A stretch of 64,000 nucleotides of DNA from an uncultured archaeon (GTDB lineage: Archaea; Thermoproteota; Nitrososphaeria; Nitrososphaerales; Gagatemarchaeaceae), in assembly GCA_963799775.1 (NCBI GenBank), contig CAWCYD010000003.1:736001-800000 (forward strand), given 5' to 3'. Of the stretch, positions 2,899 to 8,233 are shown one piece after another; positions within the stretch are counted from its first letter, which is position 1, and the number at the start of each line of letters is the position of its first letter. Below the pieces are notes generated by a model. That model did no database searches. It saw only the letters and a program-made list of their open reading frames with translations, and was not told the origin of the DNA. Both the position numbers and the translations under genes were made by a program.

Positions 2899-3899
2899 TC
2901 AGGTGTCCGACCGATAGTCCGAGAGGGCGGCCTGGTACCCGTCAAGCGGCTTTGCGTCGAAGCCCTCCGCCCTCAGGGTCCTCGCGAACTCGTTCGTGAA
3001 GCCGTGGGTGGTGTAGACGACCTCCGGTGAGACGTCCTCGACGAGCTTGAGTAGCTCTGAATAGTCGCAGTGGTCGCTTACCGGAAAGGAGTAGTCAGCT
3101 CCCATAGATCCCCCGTATCCTCGCTCCACTGCCCAGCCGCTGAATGCGGTCAGCACGGCCCCGAACTCCTTCTTCAGCCTGACCGCCACGCGGTTCCTCG
3201 CGCTCATCATGGGCGCTATCATCACCCACGGCCCTTGCGGGAGCCCGTCGAGGGCCTGGATATGGTCTTGGCGGCGGCCTTGAGCGGGACGCCCGACTCT
3301 CTGTAGATGTCGTTCGATCTGGCCCACCGACTCGTGCACGAAGAACGGCTCGACGAGGAGAAGAGAGACGAGAGTATCTGGGACTTGCCGAGCGGATACC
3401 CCATGAGGACGATCGGCCTCCCCCTGTCGAACGTGTGGGCGATGATCTCGTTGACGAGCTTGACCGTCTGGTCCAGCGGAGGGAAGATGTAGCGCGGGTC
3501 GCCAAAGGTCGTCTCCGTTATCAGGACCCTTGCCTTCTTCGTCTTGCAGCGGCTCATGAACGCTCGCTCCCTTCCCGCCGCGTCTCCCGTGTAGAGCACC
3601 TCGTCCTTGATGTAGAGCGCCCTCGCCCCGAGTATGTGGCCGGAGTCTAGGAGGGCAACGTCGTCAGGGAGCGCATGCCTCTCAGAGCCGAGCTCGACGC
3701 CCCTCGCGCGCGCAAGCGTCACGGTCTCCTTCGAGGCGAGCACCTTCGAGGCTGGATGCGGCGTCTCGACGTGGTCCATGTGGGCATGAGAGACGAAGGT
3801 GTAGTCGGCCCTTACCGAAGCTTTCGGGTCGAGGGCGTATTTTACGCCTCGATGCTGCACCATGATGCCGGCCCCGAGAGACACACTTGCCATAGTCAA
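2899..3899 (-). CDS. MBL-fold/beta-CASP exonuclease (frameshifted near 3300-3340)
   Basis: SHAHMDH, SGHILGA, YTGD, ETTFG, then SDHCD and YTTHG in the downstream frame. Confidence 0.85.
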
Positions 3900-3987: not shown

Positions 3988-4377
3988 TCAGGCGCCGAAG
4001 AGATGAGCTCGCGCGTGGACCGTGAGGAGCTCCTGGTGCTCTGTCACGAAGGCGCAGTAAGGGCACTGGACCACGTTGGGGGGAAGCTGGTTCTGCTTCT
4101 TCTTCTTGCTCGCAGCGATGGGGTCGGCAGAGTGCACGACGAAGCGCTCGCCCTGCACCTCCAATGAGTAGTGTTCGGAGTCCTTCCTGCGGGAGATGAA
4201 GCCCGTCACGGCCTGCCGCACCATCTCGGGCTCTGGCTTCGTCTCCGTGAGGACGTCCAGCACGATGCTCTCGTCTTTGACCAGTGCGATCGCGATGCCT
4301 TCAAGGCTGTCAGAGATCTGAGAGGCTAGTGCGAGCTTCTCGTCCGCTGAGAGCTCGGTGCAGTCCACCAGGATCAT
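3988..4377 (-). CDS. Hypothetical protein with C-terminal C2H2 zinc finger
   Basis: CPYCAFVTEHQELLTVHARAH motif; same strand, just downstream of the parA partner. Confidence 0.75.
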   Translation of the reverse strand: MILVDCTELSADEKLALASQISDSLEGIAIALVKDESIVLDVLTETKPEPEMVRQAVTGFISRRKDSEHYSLEVQGERFVVHSADPIAASKKKKQNQLPPNVVQCPYCAFVTEHQELLTVHARAHLFGA

Positions 4378-4426
4378 TGAGTCGGCGGCGGGTAGCCCGA
4401 GAGATAGAGCTTTTGGTGCGGCCCGT

Positions 4427-4910
4427 TCACTTGAACTTGCCGAAGAGTCGCTTGAAGAATCCGCCCGTCCTCTGGGCTGGCGCGGCGGCCTCGGCCGGAG
4501 CGGGGCTCGCAGGCTGCGGTGCGGCGGGCGCAGTCACCGTCTCGGCGACTGGGACTGGCGAGGAGGCGATGACCTCGACGATGCGTTGGGTGAGGGCGAC
4601 TGGTTCGTCAGCCGGCAGCACGACCGGCTCCGTCTCTGGCTCGATCTGGCCGCTGCTGGAGCAGCGGCGACCTCCCTGATCTCCGGGATCTGCGATATCT
4701 CCGTTATCTCAGGTGCCTCGATTGCCTCCGCTGTTGCAACCTTTGCCTGCGCAATGCACCTTCAGCGCGTCGGCGGAAGAAGACTTCGTTGTAAGAAGAA
4801 CGCGACGAGGGCCCGCCTTGGACCGTCGTTGCCGGCCCGGAAGAGGGGAATGTCGTGGCTTGAGCGGATTTGGCCCGTCTCAGAGGGTCGTCGCCTAGGC
4901 GCTTTGGCAA
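4427..4910 (-). CDS. Putative ParA partner: low-complexity linker with C-terminal amphipathic helix (two apparent single-base deletions)
   Basis: Start overlaps parA end; MPKRLGDDPL N-terminus; Ala/Pro/Glu-rich middle; ends GGFFKRLFGKFK. The 484-nt span becomes a whole number of codons if 2 bases are restored. Confidence 0.7.
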
Positions 4911-5767
4911 GCTAGTATCTCCTTTGCAAGGTCTCTGTACGCCCTGGCGCCGGAGCTCTTCGGGTCGTACTCGAAGATCGACTTGTGGTGGCTGGGGGCC
5001 TCCGCAAGGCGCACGTTGATCGGGATGTAGGTGGAGAAGACCCTCCCTTCGAACTCGTCGCGCACCTTCTCCGCGACCTCGCGGGAGATGAGCGTCCTTC
5101 TGTCGTACATGGTCAAGACCGCGCCCAGGACTCTGAGGGAGGGATTGATGTCTTCCTTGACCTTCTGGATCGTCTCTTGGAGATGGACCACGCCGTCCAA
5201 CGCGAAGTAGTGCGTCTGGACTGGGATGATGACGTCGGTGGCCGCCGTGAGGGTGTTCACCATCAGGAGACCTAGCGACGGAGGCGTGTCGACCAGGACG
5301 AAATCGTAATGCCTGTCACCATCGGTGAGGGCCTTTAGTTTCTTCTTGAGCTTGAACTGCATGTTGATGTCGTTCGCGAGCCTCACCTGGCAGGAACTGA
5401 GGTTCTGGCTGGAAGGAGCGATGTCGAGGTTCGCCCTGCAGCCGGCCAAGACGACGTCCCCGAACGAAACAGAGTCGTCCAGCAAGAGGTCTGCCGTGCT
5501 CTTCCCTTGGGGCGCGTCAGGGGAGACCAGATAGTCGGTCGAGTTGGCTTGCGGGTCTAGGTCGATGAGCAATACCTTGTATCCGAGGGAGGCCAGCTGA
5601 CAAGATAGGTTGACCGTGAGGTCGGTCTTGCCTACGCCGCCCTTTTGGTTGGCCACCGCGATCACTCGTGTGAGCGCCTGCATCGAGGCGGAGACTGTCC
5701 TTGAACCTGAGGATGAGCCTGCCATCCTGCTCGAAGTCTTCATCTCCAATCTCCCGTCTGTTCTCAT
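4895..5767 (-). CDS. parA: ParA/Soj family ATPase (true start may be internal)
   Basis: Deviant Walker A NQKGGVGKT, IDLDPQAN, DTPPSLG, IIPVQTHYFAL, RLAEAPSH. Confidence 0.93.
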   Translation of the reverse strand: MRTDGRLEMKTSSRMAGSSSGSRTVSASMQALTRVIAVANQKGGVGKTDLTVNLSCQLASLGYKVLLIDLDPQANSTDYLVSPDAPQGKSTADLLLDDSVSFGDVVLAGCRANLDIAPSSQNLSSCQVRLANDINMQFKLKKKLKALTDGDRHYDFVLVDTPPSLGLLMVNTLTAATDVIIPVQTHYFALDGVVHLQETIQKVKEDINPSLRVLGAVLTMYDRRTLISREVAEKVRDEFEGRVFSTYIPINVRLAEAPSHHKSIFEYDPKSSGARAYRDLAKEILACQSA

Positions 5768-5852
5768 CTCATGAGGGTTCCCGATAATAACCGCGAGGTG
5801 ATTTCATTTACATCTCGAGGCTAACTCATCTTAACAAAATCACCGGAGACGG

Positions 5853-8233
5853 TCAGCGCGCGGTCGAGACCTTGAGCGCCCTCCACGAATTTGGCTTCAA
5901 GTCAACCTTGATCTCGAGCCTCGAAACAAGTTTCAATCGGTCCATCTTGACCCAGAGCCCGGTCTCAGGCTGCAGCTCCTCGACCTCTGCGAATAGAGAC
6001 GTCGCGAAGGACTTGGACTTGGCAGGTAAGGGGACCAGGCCAGAGAATGGGACAGGTTCCGTGTTCCCGAGACAGATAAGGCTCGCACCAACGTCCCAGA
6101 AGAGGATGCCTTGCAGCCCCCCGGTGCCTTCCACCCTCAGTGCTTCCGGAAAGTGAGCCGAGGTCGGCATCGTCCCGTCCGCCCATCGCGAGACGTCGAG
6201 ACTCTCCTTCCCGAAACTGGAGGCGACGAACGCGCGACCCCCGGCCCTGCCGACGAATACAGACCCCTTCTTCCCCAGGTCGAGGTCGTGGACAAACAGC
6301 CAGCGCAGCTTCGATGCCTCGGGGACCTTGAACCGCAGCCCTTCTCCGCCCCAGGCTAGGCCTGCCTCGCCGAAGAGCAACGTCTCGACGAACCTCGAAG
6401 CGGCGACGGGGTCGGACCCAGAGCTCTGGATCTGCTTCCTCTCGCAATCGATCCAGTGCGGGAACTCTCCTGGATGCCTCCGAGCCGTTCCGCCTCGAGA
6501 TGAACCAACCTCGCAACTTTCTCGAGCTGTGCGCTCCCTATGCTGGGGTACCCGTTCGCGAAGGCCAACGAAGCATGAGAGAGGGCAGCCCTTGTCCAGT
6601 AGCCGCCCAGCTGCCCGTCTCCATAGGTCGGACTGTAGTATAGGTTGTTCGAGCTCGGGACCGTGCGAGGGCCCCAGCCCGTCTCAAAGTCCTTGTCCAT
6701 GAGCCTGTGCACGACGGAAGAGGCCAGGTTCTGGTCAGGCGAGAAGAACGAGAGACCCACGGCCTGGTCCACAGTCATCTCCTTGTGGACGACTCCCCGG
6801 GAGTCCACGTTTAGCGCAAGCGCGCGTGTCTCGGGGCCCTAAGTTTCTCGTTCAGCGAGTCCAATAGCCTGAGGCTCTGTTCACGGAGCTTCGCGGAGTC
6901 GCTCCCCCTGCCCGCCAGCTGCGCGACCGTCGACGCGTCACGGAGGGCTCTTACGGCGACCAGGTTGACTTCGGCTGTGTGACCGGTCGGGAAACCGGCG
7001 CCAAGCCGGCGCCTCCACCCGTCTGGGGACTCGGACGACGAGACCAACAGGCCGTCGGCTAGCATGTTCGAGAGGCCGTCCGCGACCTTCTTGACGTTCG
7101 GGTAGGACTTCTTGATGGCTCTCCTGTCCTGGGAGCGCGCCGTGAGACAGGCGCACAGCCCGATGAGGTAGAGCGAGGTCTCCAAGGACACTCCTCTCTC
7201 GAGGCCAAGCCCTGCGTCTCGAGCGGTGTCCGAGTAGCGGATCGTCCCGTCCTTCCTGAGATTTCTTCTTCCCCACTCGGTCAAGGTCTGGACGAAGTCA
7301 CCCTGGAGCAAGGAGAGGCCGATGCTGGCAGACAGGCGCTCCTCCAGGTTCTCTTCGCTCTCTATCGAGCAAAGGATGGCCTTTGCCCACTCGAAAGCGA
7401 AATTGACGGAGGGATTCGAGGTGACGAAGCCGACCCCGGCTGGATTGACCGAGCCAGACGCGCCCTCCTCGGCCAGAGCGGTCGTCGCCGCGCTGAGCGC
7501 GGCCTCCAGCGATGAAGGGTGATAGAGAGAGAAGGACCTGATCTCCGCGACGCCACCAGGCAGGAGGTCGAGTGCCCTGCTGCGTCATGATGATGACCGA
7601 ACCTGACATTCCGAGCGAGCTCTCTGGGAGCTCCCCGAGGGAGAGCAGCTCCGCGGCTCGGCTCCTGTCCTTCGTCATGTATATGACGGATGGGCGGGAG
7701 GAGAAGCCGATCACCCTGACGCCTGTGGTGTCGCCCACGTCGTCCATCACGACCTGGTCTTGACGGTTGAACGCGTTGACCCCGATCTCTCCGGGAGCAT
7801 CGCGGTCTCGTCTGAAGTTCAAAGACGTGGGGTCATGGAGGGTCAACACCCTCAGCCTCGCCACCGCGTCGGTCCTGTTGGTGAGGGTCACAGCCCTTAC
7901 CCAGCCCTCGCACTCACCGTGGAGCAACCTGACAGAGTGCACGGCTTGGATCTTCTCCACCCCTCGCGGTGAGTAAGAGGCACCAGTCGGAGTGGTCCTC
8001 AGAATGACGTCCTGGGAACGTACGCCTATCTTCACGCCGGCTTGGATCTTGAAGACCTCGGTCGAAATCCTCCCGAAGACGAGCTTCCTCGCGTGCGCGC
8101 TGTAGAGCCAGGACATGGACCCGTCAGGCTCTATCTTGGCTCGGATCCCGCCACGGAAGAGGAAGATGCCCCTCTTCAGCTGCGAAGCCGAGAGCTCGCG
8201 GGTCTGGGGGAACTGCGAGAGCCCGCGCTGCAT
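5853..8233 (-). CDS. Large glycoside hydrolase / glycogen debranching-like protein, fragmented by indels
   Basis: Four abutting minus-strand ORFs (7298..8233, 6811..7311, 6356..6808, 5853..6380); GWGPRT..YSPTY..G.W resembles the amylo-alpha-1,6-glucosidase-like barrel. Confidence 0.5.

Follow-up and report, generated by a model that had tools for sequence, protein, structure and literature searches.

A Soj-type ParA and a disordered partner ending in a MinD-type tail: a putative membrane adaptor in soil Nitrososphaerota

What distinguishes a ParA-like ATPase from a MinD-like one is the surface on which it travels: the nucleoid for the former and, for the latter, the membrane, reached through a tail of the ATPase itself. 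A locus in an uncultured archaeon of the family Gagatemarchaeaceae (order Nitrososphaerales) raises the question of whether a ParA might be given such a tail by a second protein. The locus lies in a stretch of 64,000 nucleotides (assembly GCA_963799775.1, contig CAWCYD010000003.1, positions 736,001 to 800,000), hereafter called the window, where a small gene spread over three reading frames overlaps the end of a parA gene and ends in codons for a peptide resembling the membrane-targeting sequence of Escherichia coli MinD. The initial annotation had read the pair as a nucleoid-binding ParA tethered to the membrane by an adaptor, and this reading was partly supported. The best explanation is that parA and an adaptor gene form a translationally coupled cassette in soil Nitrososphaerota that do not oxidise ammonia; that the adaptor binds ParA, that it binds the membrane, and what cellular role it has are inferred.

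The parA gene and a partner in three reading frames

The parA gene occupies positions 4895 to 5767 of the reverse strand, on which all window features named below are located, and is an intact open reading frame (ORF) of 290 amino acids. Translation likely starts at the ninth codon (M9) at position 5743, as judged from the N-termini of orthologues and a GGAG just upstream, and would yield a protein of 282 amino acids. By its motifs and alignments, the product is a complete ATPase of the deviant Walker A class and resembles Soj. It matched the Pfam families AAA_31 (E-value 3.1e-50, 171 bits, cut-off 27) and CbiA (1.1e-24, 87.2 bits, cut-off 25.4) and carries the deviant Walker A motif NQKGGVGKT, in which K32, G33, G34, V35, G36, K37, and T38 are invariant among 21 orthologues. 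A further 19 genomes of this genus contained orthologues with 65-80% identity.

Among characterized relatives, Soj of Thermus thermophilus (1wcv) aligned to ParA end to end with an E-value of 1.6e-53 (residues 3-244 of Soj against residues 30-286 of ParA), while McdA (about 1e-16), FleN, and MinD aligned less well. A chain of 220 amino acids, 7dut, which we take to be SegA, aligned with an E-value of 3.4e-13. The protein scored below the equivalog cut-off of the NCBIfam model ParA_partition (101.8 bits against 180) and below both NCBIfam cut-offs for MinD (minD_arch, 73.6 against 201.75; minD_bact, 41.9 against 212.9), and PADLOC gave weak matches at the P-loop level only, the best at 1.4e-6 over residues 26-114. 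The ParA motifs YDRRT and NVRLAEAPS contain arginines that are matched in the alignment by arginines of T. thermophilus Soj; these residues, R214 and R243, are invariant or nearly so, and they are kept beside all classes of partner described below. The C-terminus of ParA reads ...AKEILACQSA and was found to be free of an amphipathic tail, as the initial annotation had stated, unlike MinD, where the ATPase itself carries one.

The partner gene spans positions 4427 to 4910 and would encode about 161 amino acids if two missing bases are allowed. Its proposed overlap with the parA stop was confirmed: a TTG at 4910 opens a reading frame that begins with MPKRLGDDPL and shares the last 16 nucleotides of parA (4895-4910), and a Shine-Dalgarno-like hexamer, GGAGAT (4917-4922), lies inside the 3' end of parA, 6 nucleotides before this TTG. 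The first piece, in frame -2, runs from MPKRLGDDPL through a second conserved motif, SYNEVFFRRR (4767-4796), to a stop at 4704, and its N-terminal tag MPKRLGDDPLRRAK (4869-4910) is a putative element for docking on and activating ParA. The middle frame, -1, holds an acidic motif, APEITEISQIPEIRE (4672-4716). The third piece, in frame -3 (4427-4594), begins with a short conserved helix, LTQRIVEVIAS (4562-4594; IEEVVAxL in relatives), which corresponds to helix 124-134 in the AlphaFold2 model of an intact orthologue (P0001). It ends in the amphipathic tail GGFFKRLFGKFK (4430-4465), a putative membrane-targeting helix that is followed directly by the stop codon at 4427-4429.

The three pieces were matched in order by residues 1-52, 66-83, and 156-169 of an intact orthologue of 171 amino acids, and the frame order of -2, -1, and -3 fits two single missing bases. 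The first break (-2 to -1) falls within 4717-4762, an interval bounded by the second motif, an in-frame TGA of the next frame, and the acidic motif, and the second break (-1 to -3) falls within 4595-4671; both positions at which bases had been proposed for restoration, near 4755 and 4645, lie inside these intervals. Relatives showed that the N- and C-terminal pieces belong to one gene: the partner is a single intact ORF of 128-215 amino acids, with tag and tail, in 22 of the 26 loci of the family, and is split in the other four, the window included. For the 17 loci with listed start codons, the partner begins with TTG in 14, ATG in two, and GTG in one, and GGAGAT (GGAGGT in one locus) stands at the same distance before the start in all 17.

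The assembly as given splits the partner over three frames and no read data cross the breaks, which would also be seen if the partner were a true pseudogene in this genome and both frameshifts were real. Such decay is highly improbable. When the intact proteins of a relative were compared with the first 12 kb of the window, nine frame changes were mapped in about 8 kb across four genes, including the partner with its three frames. A class I aminoacyl-tRNA synthetase was found in four frame segments, a metallo-beta-lactamase-fold gene in two, and an upstream protein of 823 amino acids in four. Gene calls across the source genome are expected to be badly fragmented by such indels, and the genome, although assembled into 3 contigs, has a marker completeness of only 81.67%. 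As a presumably essential synthetase is broken three times, the frame changes point to assembly indels and not to decay, and the partner's breaks are almost certainly of the same origin. Each of its conserved motifs can also be read without interruption in its own frame, and none of the needed pieces contains a stop. The fragmented neighbours occupy positions 52-2818, 2902-3899, and 5865-8233, with about one frame-shifting indel per kilobase.

Conserved islands of the partner and its C-termini across the order

A database search with the intact partner of a relative returned 120 homologues, all of them unnamed or hypothetical proteins without a Pfam domain; those with assembly names came from Thaumarchaeota, Nitrososphaerales, or Nitrososphaerota. 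The 112 full-length homologues range from 102 to 249 amino acids with a median of 179.5. The partner is predicted to be a disordered protein of about 160-180 amino acids that is conserved in short islands only. These islands are the tag MP[KR]RLGDDPLxRA[KR], the motif SYNDVFFxRR, the acidic motif EISEISEIPEIRE, the short helix, and the C-terminal cationic amphipathic helix. A motif of the N[DE]VFF type, a motif of the EISEISE type, and the tail were each present in 108 of the 112 full-length homologues, so that both termini are kept in the homologous pairs of relatives while the linker between them varies. In an alignment of 36 sequences (A1), the mean column identity was 29% and the residues L5, G6, P9, L10, N49, V51, F52, F53, and G172 were invariant; Arg12, located in a predicted helix after L-G-x-x-P-L, was nearly so.

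The linker had been described as rich in alanine, proline, and glutamate and without a recognisable DNA-binding fold, and its composition (19% Ala, 13% Pro, 13% Glu, about 17% Glu plus Asp, and no Cys) agreed with this, as did all structure and family searches. Both its sequence and its length vary. AlphaFold2 on the partner alignment (P0001) gave a mean pLDDT of 55.8 and a pTM of 0.17, with helices at residues 9-22, 124-134, and 174-179 only, the last of which is the tail, and the ESM Atlas model of the partner had a pLDDT of 0.45. Pfam searches of the 36 members reached a best E-value of 0.014 in one member, NCBIfam and PADLOC had no match for the partner, a profile search of all Protein Data Bank (PDB) chains returned noise only (E-values of 1.9 and 2.6), and the ESM Atlas comparison gave feature scores of at most 0.78 and TM scores of at most 0.32. 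Judged by these searches, the partner is outside every known family and has no ParB, SegB, ribbon-helix-helix, or other DNA-binding fold.

The acidic island has a repeat-like form, APEI[ST]EISEIPEIRE, and is missing in part of the genus (for example, in loci L008-L018) and in the short forms of the partner described below. This motif may serve to shield the basic tail, or it may imitate DNA on ParA.

The membrane-targeting sequence given for E. coli MinD in the initial annotation, KGFLKRLFGG, was verified in the K-12 genome record, where the protein ends in ...EEEKKGFLKRLFGG, i.e., ...KKGFLKRLFGG. The resemblance of the partner's C-terminus to this sequence held up in residue identity, in the arc of its hydrophobic residues, and in the predicted helix at residues 174-179. 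The tail octamer GFFKRLFG is identical to GFLKRLFG of MinD at seven of eight positions; GFFKRLFG itself occurs in 77 of the 120 homologues, and the exact MinD octamer in 11. The five hydrophobic residues of the tail span an arc of 140 degrees, as they do in MinD, and an arc as narrow was obtained in 467 of 20,000 shuffles. The last 12 residues carry a net charge of +4 in 97 of 112 homologues.

ParA orthologues (E-value of at most 1e-40) were found in 30 of 301 genomes of the order, with 18 of 74 in the window's family, six of nine in family f4, four of 15 in f14, one of 73 in f12, and none of 73 in f15. Downstream of parA, the tag was present in 36 of 37 orthologue loci; the remaining locus ends 25 nucleotides past parA, where the tag begins. 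Across the order, the tag has the pattern M-x-[KR]-[RGK]-L-x-[DQN]-[DN]-P-[LF] and is followed 15-45 residues on by an FF motif, Y/L-x-x-[FY]-F. Tag and FF motif are common to all partner classes behind orthologous ParAs, while the C-termini differ. In family f14, partners of 54-58 amino acids consist only of the tag, the FF motif, and an amphipathic tail (GFVGRLKRFFGK, GFFGRIKQFFGGN), and others of 77-80 amino acids end in LGDKLKKLFS; these short forms keep the amphipathic pattern and the charge of +4 though their residues differ. Family f4 has two kinds of C-terminus, a zinc ribbon (CxxC...CxC) and an acidic tip (...DDGEDPF). In f12 and its relatives, partners of 105-150 amino acids have a winged helix of the TrmB type (32.5 bits for P0197, cut-off 25.6); the sources of this class include one Nitrosopumilaceae archaeon and, for two loci found with an alignment of this class alone, a Thaumarchaeota archaeon.

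What stays the same across the order is ParA next door and the tag of the partner. This is most simply explained if ParA is bound by the tag while the target is set by the C-terminus. We therefore infer that each partner combines a part that binds ParA, the tag, with an exchangeable C-terminal cargo part, and the cargo of the window's partner would most likely be the membrane. A profile of all partner classes matched 58 clusters at an E-value of at most 0.001 among 1.84 billion representatives; by this measure, the tagged partner family is small and confined to this lineage.

Two of the classes showed further variation. The partners of f4 with an acidic tip (L020:2256-2528, P0122-P0130, P0203, and P0209) are 87-90 amino acids long and end in ...DDGEDPF or ...EDSEDLF, with sister forms that have a zinc ribbon; the tip resembles the acidic protein-binding tips of single-strand DNA-binding proteins. 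In locus L060 of another family (2653-2982 and the preceding ORF), two tagged partners come after parA. One has a winged helix of the TrmB type, and the other carries a folded domain and has no start codon (ATG, GTG, or TTG) close to the tag. Loci L064 and L065 and the proteins P0131-P0198 also belong to this group.

The variety of C-termini bears on an alternative for the window's tail, in which the helix is a short linear motif that binds protein and either links ParA to a protein cargo or hub, for example a tubulin/FtsZ-family protein, SepF, or the MIT domain of a Vps4-like ATPase, or folds back on ParA. The C-termini of the other classes are protein- or DNA-binding elements (acidic tip, zinc ribbon, and winged helix), and the F-x-x-R-L core of the tail is loosely like helical MIT-interacting motifs. 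Possible targets are encoded in the source genome outside the window, namely five tubulin/FtsZ-family genes (66-141 bits, at five places in G000:C3:201098-1909988), SepF (C3:1151745-1151939), and an AAA ATPase with a Vps4_C domain (C3:730400-730516) about 10 kb from the pair. However, the tail matches a proven membrane-targeting sequence at seven of eight positions, the match being exact in the 11 homologues mentioned above, and no linked gene suggests itself as a binding partner. Moreover, the distant short forms retain amphipathy and charge while their residues change, which is expected of lipid binding more than of a specific protein groove. Protein binding as the function of the tail is thus somewhat unlikely, and membrane binding is the reading followed below.

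Genomic setting, proposed mechanism, and competing roles

ParA stood beside the partner in all 24 loci that were found through the partner, and nothing else was common to the 24. The 78 flanking genes from 20 of these loci (four short loci were left out) are a mixture of housekeeping and metabolic genes, and no integrase, transposase, or defence gene was found among them by Pfam; a mobile-element reading of the locus was rejected for want of an integrase or transposase in this set. Within the family, the partner was identified in 29 of 97 genomes. The window's genus accounted for 20 of these, out of 22 genomes, and the two that lack the partner are 57% and 59% complete; in genus g20, six of 55 genomes have it, and complete genomes are among those without it.

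In the source genome, which is frameshifted and 81.67% complete, no second ORF with the tag or the tail was found. A true MinD was not identified either, the best match to minD_arch being the window's ParA with 73.6 bits against a cut-off of 201.75. MinE and MinC did not turn up, in the course of searches that were not aimed at them, and no Pfam match to Snf7 was obtained with a model that is weak for archaea. A division background based on Cdv alone, as had been assumed for this phylum, was not supported in view of the five tubulin/FtsZ-family genes and SepF, and this lineage appears to divide with machinery that is unusual for the phylum. The only ParB_N match of the genome was weak (29.4 bits) and came from an unlinked ORF of 159 amino acids (L021:1567-2046) about 250 kb from the pair. 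This ORF has a stretch resembling a helix-turn-helix (HTH) and is preceded by a CxxC ORF, and the two resemble the ParB-like/TFIIB pairs described on thaumarchaeal integrative conjugative elements (PMC6563490). The G+C content of the window is 60.9%; a range of 54-62% is given for Gagatemarchaeaceae (PMC10640624).

We lean, by a modest degree, towards a complex in which a ParA-ATP dimer holds two adaptors whose paired tails would anchor it to the membrane, with the nucleoid bridged if ParA sits on DNA. The tag, probably together with the FF motif, would dock on the ATP-bound ParA dimer and stimulate hydrolysis. The disordered N-termini of ParB, ParG, MinE, and McdB dock on their ATPases and stimulate hydrolysis in this manner. 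Engagement through a charged, disordered N-terminus has been described for partners of ParA/MinD (A/D) ATPases more generally (PMC10241942; PMC11407121), and N-terminal residues of ParB have been reported to form a helix with an arginine finger in the cleft of the ParA dimer (PMC5393062). The tail, at the other end of the adaptor, would lie on the membrane surface. The E. coli MinD tail is reported to bind membranes only in at least two copies (PMC6803595); as a single tail of the MinD type binds weakly, two or more are needed for firm binding, and these would be supplied by a ParA dimer that holds two adaptors. In effect, the pair would amount to a MinD that receives its membrane switch in trans. 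If ParA, with its two conserved arginines, binds nucleoid DNA, the ATP-bound complex would bridge nucleoid and membrane, and hydrolysis would release it. Least certain is what the complex is for: positioning or anchoring of the nucleoid is one possibility, and a Min-like membrane pattern in a cell with FtsZ and SepF and no MinD is another.

A bolder form of the proposal, which is possible and is offered tentatively, holds that the pair is a MinD split in two genes. A nucleoid-riding ParA of the Soj type would gain an ATP-gated membrane anchor only while its dimer carries two adaptors with their tails, so that the nucleoid is clamped to the membrane until hydrolysis frees it, and the same ParA would have been redirected across the order to DNA, proteins, or the membrane by swapping the C-terminus of its adaptor. 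If true, this would provide a working form of the old idea that chromosomes are positioned by membrane attachment, or else a Min-like pattern generator.

Several observations weigh against the membrane-tethering proposal. First, the copy in the window is broken, and a soil sequencing run (X1) that contained 8% of the sampled words was silent on the missing bases: its contigs over positions 4300-5900 include an identical piece of 151 nucleotides at 4491-4641, but none bridges either break interval. Second, the Eisenberg hydrophobic moment of the tail is ordinary, being reached by 1,884 of 10,000 shuffles, which also favours the protein-binding alternative, and a cationic amphipathic helix of 12 residues could bind protein rather than lipid. 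Third, the arginines assigned to DNA binding are only presumed to be equivalent to the DNA-binding arginines of Bacillus subtilis Soj. Fourth, no conserved neighbour that would indicate a cargo was found in the 24 loci and their 78 flanking genes. Finally, the ParA-partner pair is accessory and not core to the order, and linkage to a replication origin was not supported, with cdc6 located within 19 kb of the pair in one of five genomes and, in the other four, at a distance of over 140 kb or on a separate contig. The absence of origin linkage, together with the accessory distribution outside one genus, argues against a general role in chromosome segregation.

Some of these observations also bear on a classical DNA-partition module, in which the partner would bind DNA through its basic N-terminal region or its tail, or through a third protein, and segregate a chromosome region or an integrated element. 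A candidate for the third protein is encoded directly downstream of the pair, as an ORF of 129 amino acids at 3988-4377 with a C-terminal C2H2-like zinc finger (zf-C2H2_16, E-value 4.7e-5, 23.7 bits, below the cut-off of 27). It was rejected as a component of the system, as it adjoins the pair in only five of 61 loci and is better described as a clade-specific neighbour. Partition would suit the Soj-like character of ParA and the reported overlap of segB with segA (PMC5120986), and the winged-helix partners of orthologous ParAs in another family suggest that the ancestral system may have been one of partition. By contrast, the partner has no DNA-binding domain and its linker is acidic, the pair is not linked to an origin, and an integrase or transposase is missing among the 78 flanking genes of 20 loci. 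A partition role for this pair is therefore unlikely.

An immunity system against mobile elements, with the tail as a membrane effector or localiser, was considered very unlikely. The idea derives from a preprint that pairs mainly archaeal ParA genes with winged-helix genes and hypothesises immunity for them (10.64898/2026.10.19.760177). It finds some echo in locus L060, where one of the two tagged partners has a winged helix, and in the patchy distribution and variable genomic context of the pair. However, the partner is present in 20 of 22 genomes of the window's genus, the two exceptions being incomplete at 57% and 59%, and ParA (65-80% identity) and the partner's termini show strong conservation and no rapid evolution. 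In addition, the best PADLOC match of ParA, 1.4e-6, is at the P-loop level, and defence genes are absent from the 78 neighbours.

Returning to the membrane adaptor, the comparison suggests that an ATPase of the ParA/MinD type with a tagged adaptor is of a known kind, while a MinD-type tail as the cargo part would be new and would couple a DNA motor to the membrane in a way not described previously. In the literature that was searched, no description was found of the partner family or of a ParA adaptor with a MinD-type tail, although the supplements to the ParA preprint cited above, which the search did not cover, may list it. One archaeal order would hold a natural series of adaptors that share their docking tag and differ in the part attached to it, be it a membrane helix, winged helix, zinc ribbon, or acidic tip. 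This series would be the luggage-tag principle set out by evolution, and it could be tested at the scale of peptides, as the shortest forms have 54-58 amino acids. To our knowledge, nothing is known about nucleoid organisation or the placement of the division site in non-ammonia-oxidising soil Nitrososphaerota. The available text of a genomics paper on Gagatemarchaeaceae contained no mention of MinD, segregation, cell division, or Cdv, and, in the five passages shown for them, its four words beginning with "para" did not refer to ParA (PMC10640624).

Comparison with known systems

The layout of the locus resembles that of SegAB in Sulfolobus, where an archaeal gene of the ParA type is reported to overlap, at its 3' end, the beginning of a small partner gene that is specific to archaea (PMC5120986). 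SegB is a folded, site-specific DNA-binding dimer, whereas no fold was predicted for the window's partner by AlphaFold2 and no match was found in the PDB. The initial annotation had set the pair apart from SegAB, with its ribbon-helix-helix partner, and from ParABS, and this distinction was upheld by the lack of a fold, of a DNA-binding domain, and of a PDB match in the partner.

Another member of the ParAB world, Noc, resembles the partner in having an amphipathic helix, which binds the membrane in Noc and is a putative membrane binder in the partner. Noc is a ParB-family protein that brings DNA to the membrane through an N-terminal amphipathic helix, binds DNA itself, and is not known to need a ParA. 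In the partner, the helix is C-terminal and is located on a protein that is tied to ParA and has no DNA-binding domain.

The likeness to ParABS and to ParF-ParG of TP228 lies in the ATPase, which is closest to chromosomal Soj, and in the mode of engagement, as the disordered N-terminus of ParB or ParG is reported to form an arginine-bearing helix in the ParA cleft (PMC5393062). The partner differs from ParB and ParG in having no ParB_N, HTH, or ribbon-helix-helix domain; parS sites were not searched for. The ParA-wHTH systems of the preprint mentioned above (10.64898/2026.10.19.760177) are described with one or more small winged-helix partner genes behind parA, some with profilin- or longin-like domains, an elongated N-terminal helix, and rapid evolution. 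The winged-helix class of tagged partners (P0131-P0198, L060, and L064) may be the same as these systems. No form with the conserved tag or a membrane tail appears in the available text of the preprint, nor is there any mention of Nitrososphaerota or Thaumarchaeota. The Arco and Dip oscillators of Haloferax, presented in two 2026 preprints, were set aside as unrelated GTPase systems.

A parallel in organisation is provided by McdA-McdB and the "luggage tag" adaptors, which are likewise two-gene units with a small, disordered, lineage-specific partner, whose charged N-terminus is proposed to bind the ATPase and whose C-terminus is the cargo part (PMC10241942; PMC11407121). The partner has no sequence relation to these adaptors, and McdA aligned to the window's ParA only at about 1e-16. 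Additionally, the cargoes of known adaptors are protein bodies, such as carboxysomes and chemoreceptor arrays, whereas the only cargo-side element of the window's partner is a helix of the membrane type.

The parallel to MinD lies in this helix. In both cases, the tail stands at the extreme C-terminus, with identity at seven of eight positions and the same arc of 140 degrees, and MinD is an ATPase of ParA's superfamily. The difference is that the tail is carried here by a separate disordered protein, while the ATPase resembles Soj and scores under the cut-offs of both MinD models. The pair would therefore blur the line between ParA and MinD, as a Soj-like ATPase that is given a MinD-type tail in trans by a disordered adaptor.

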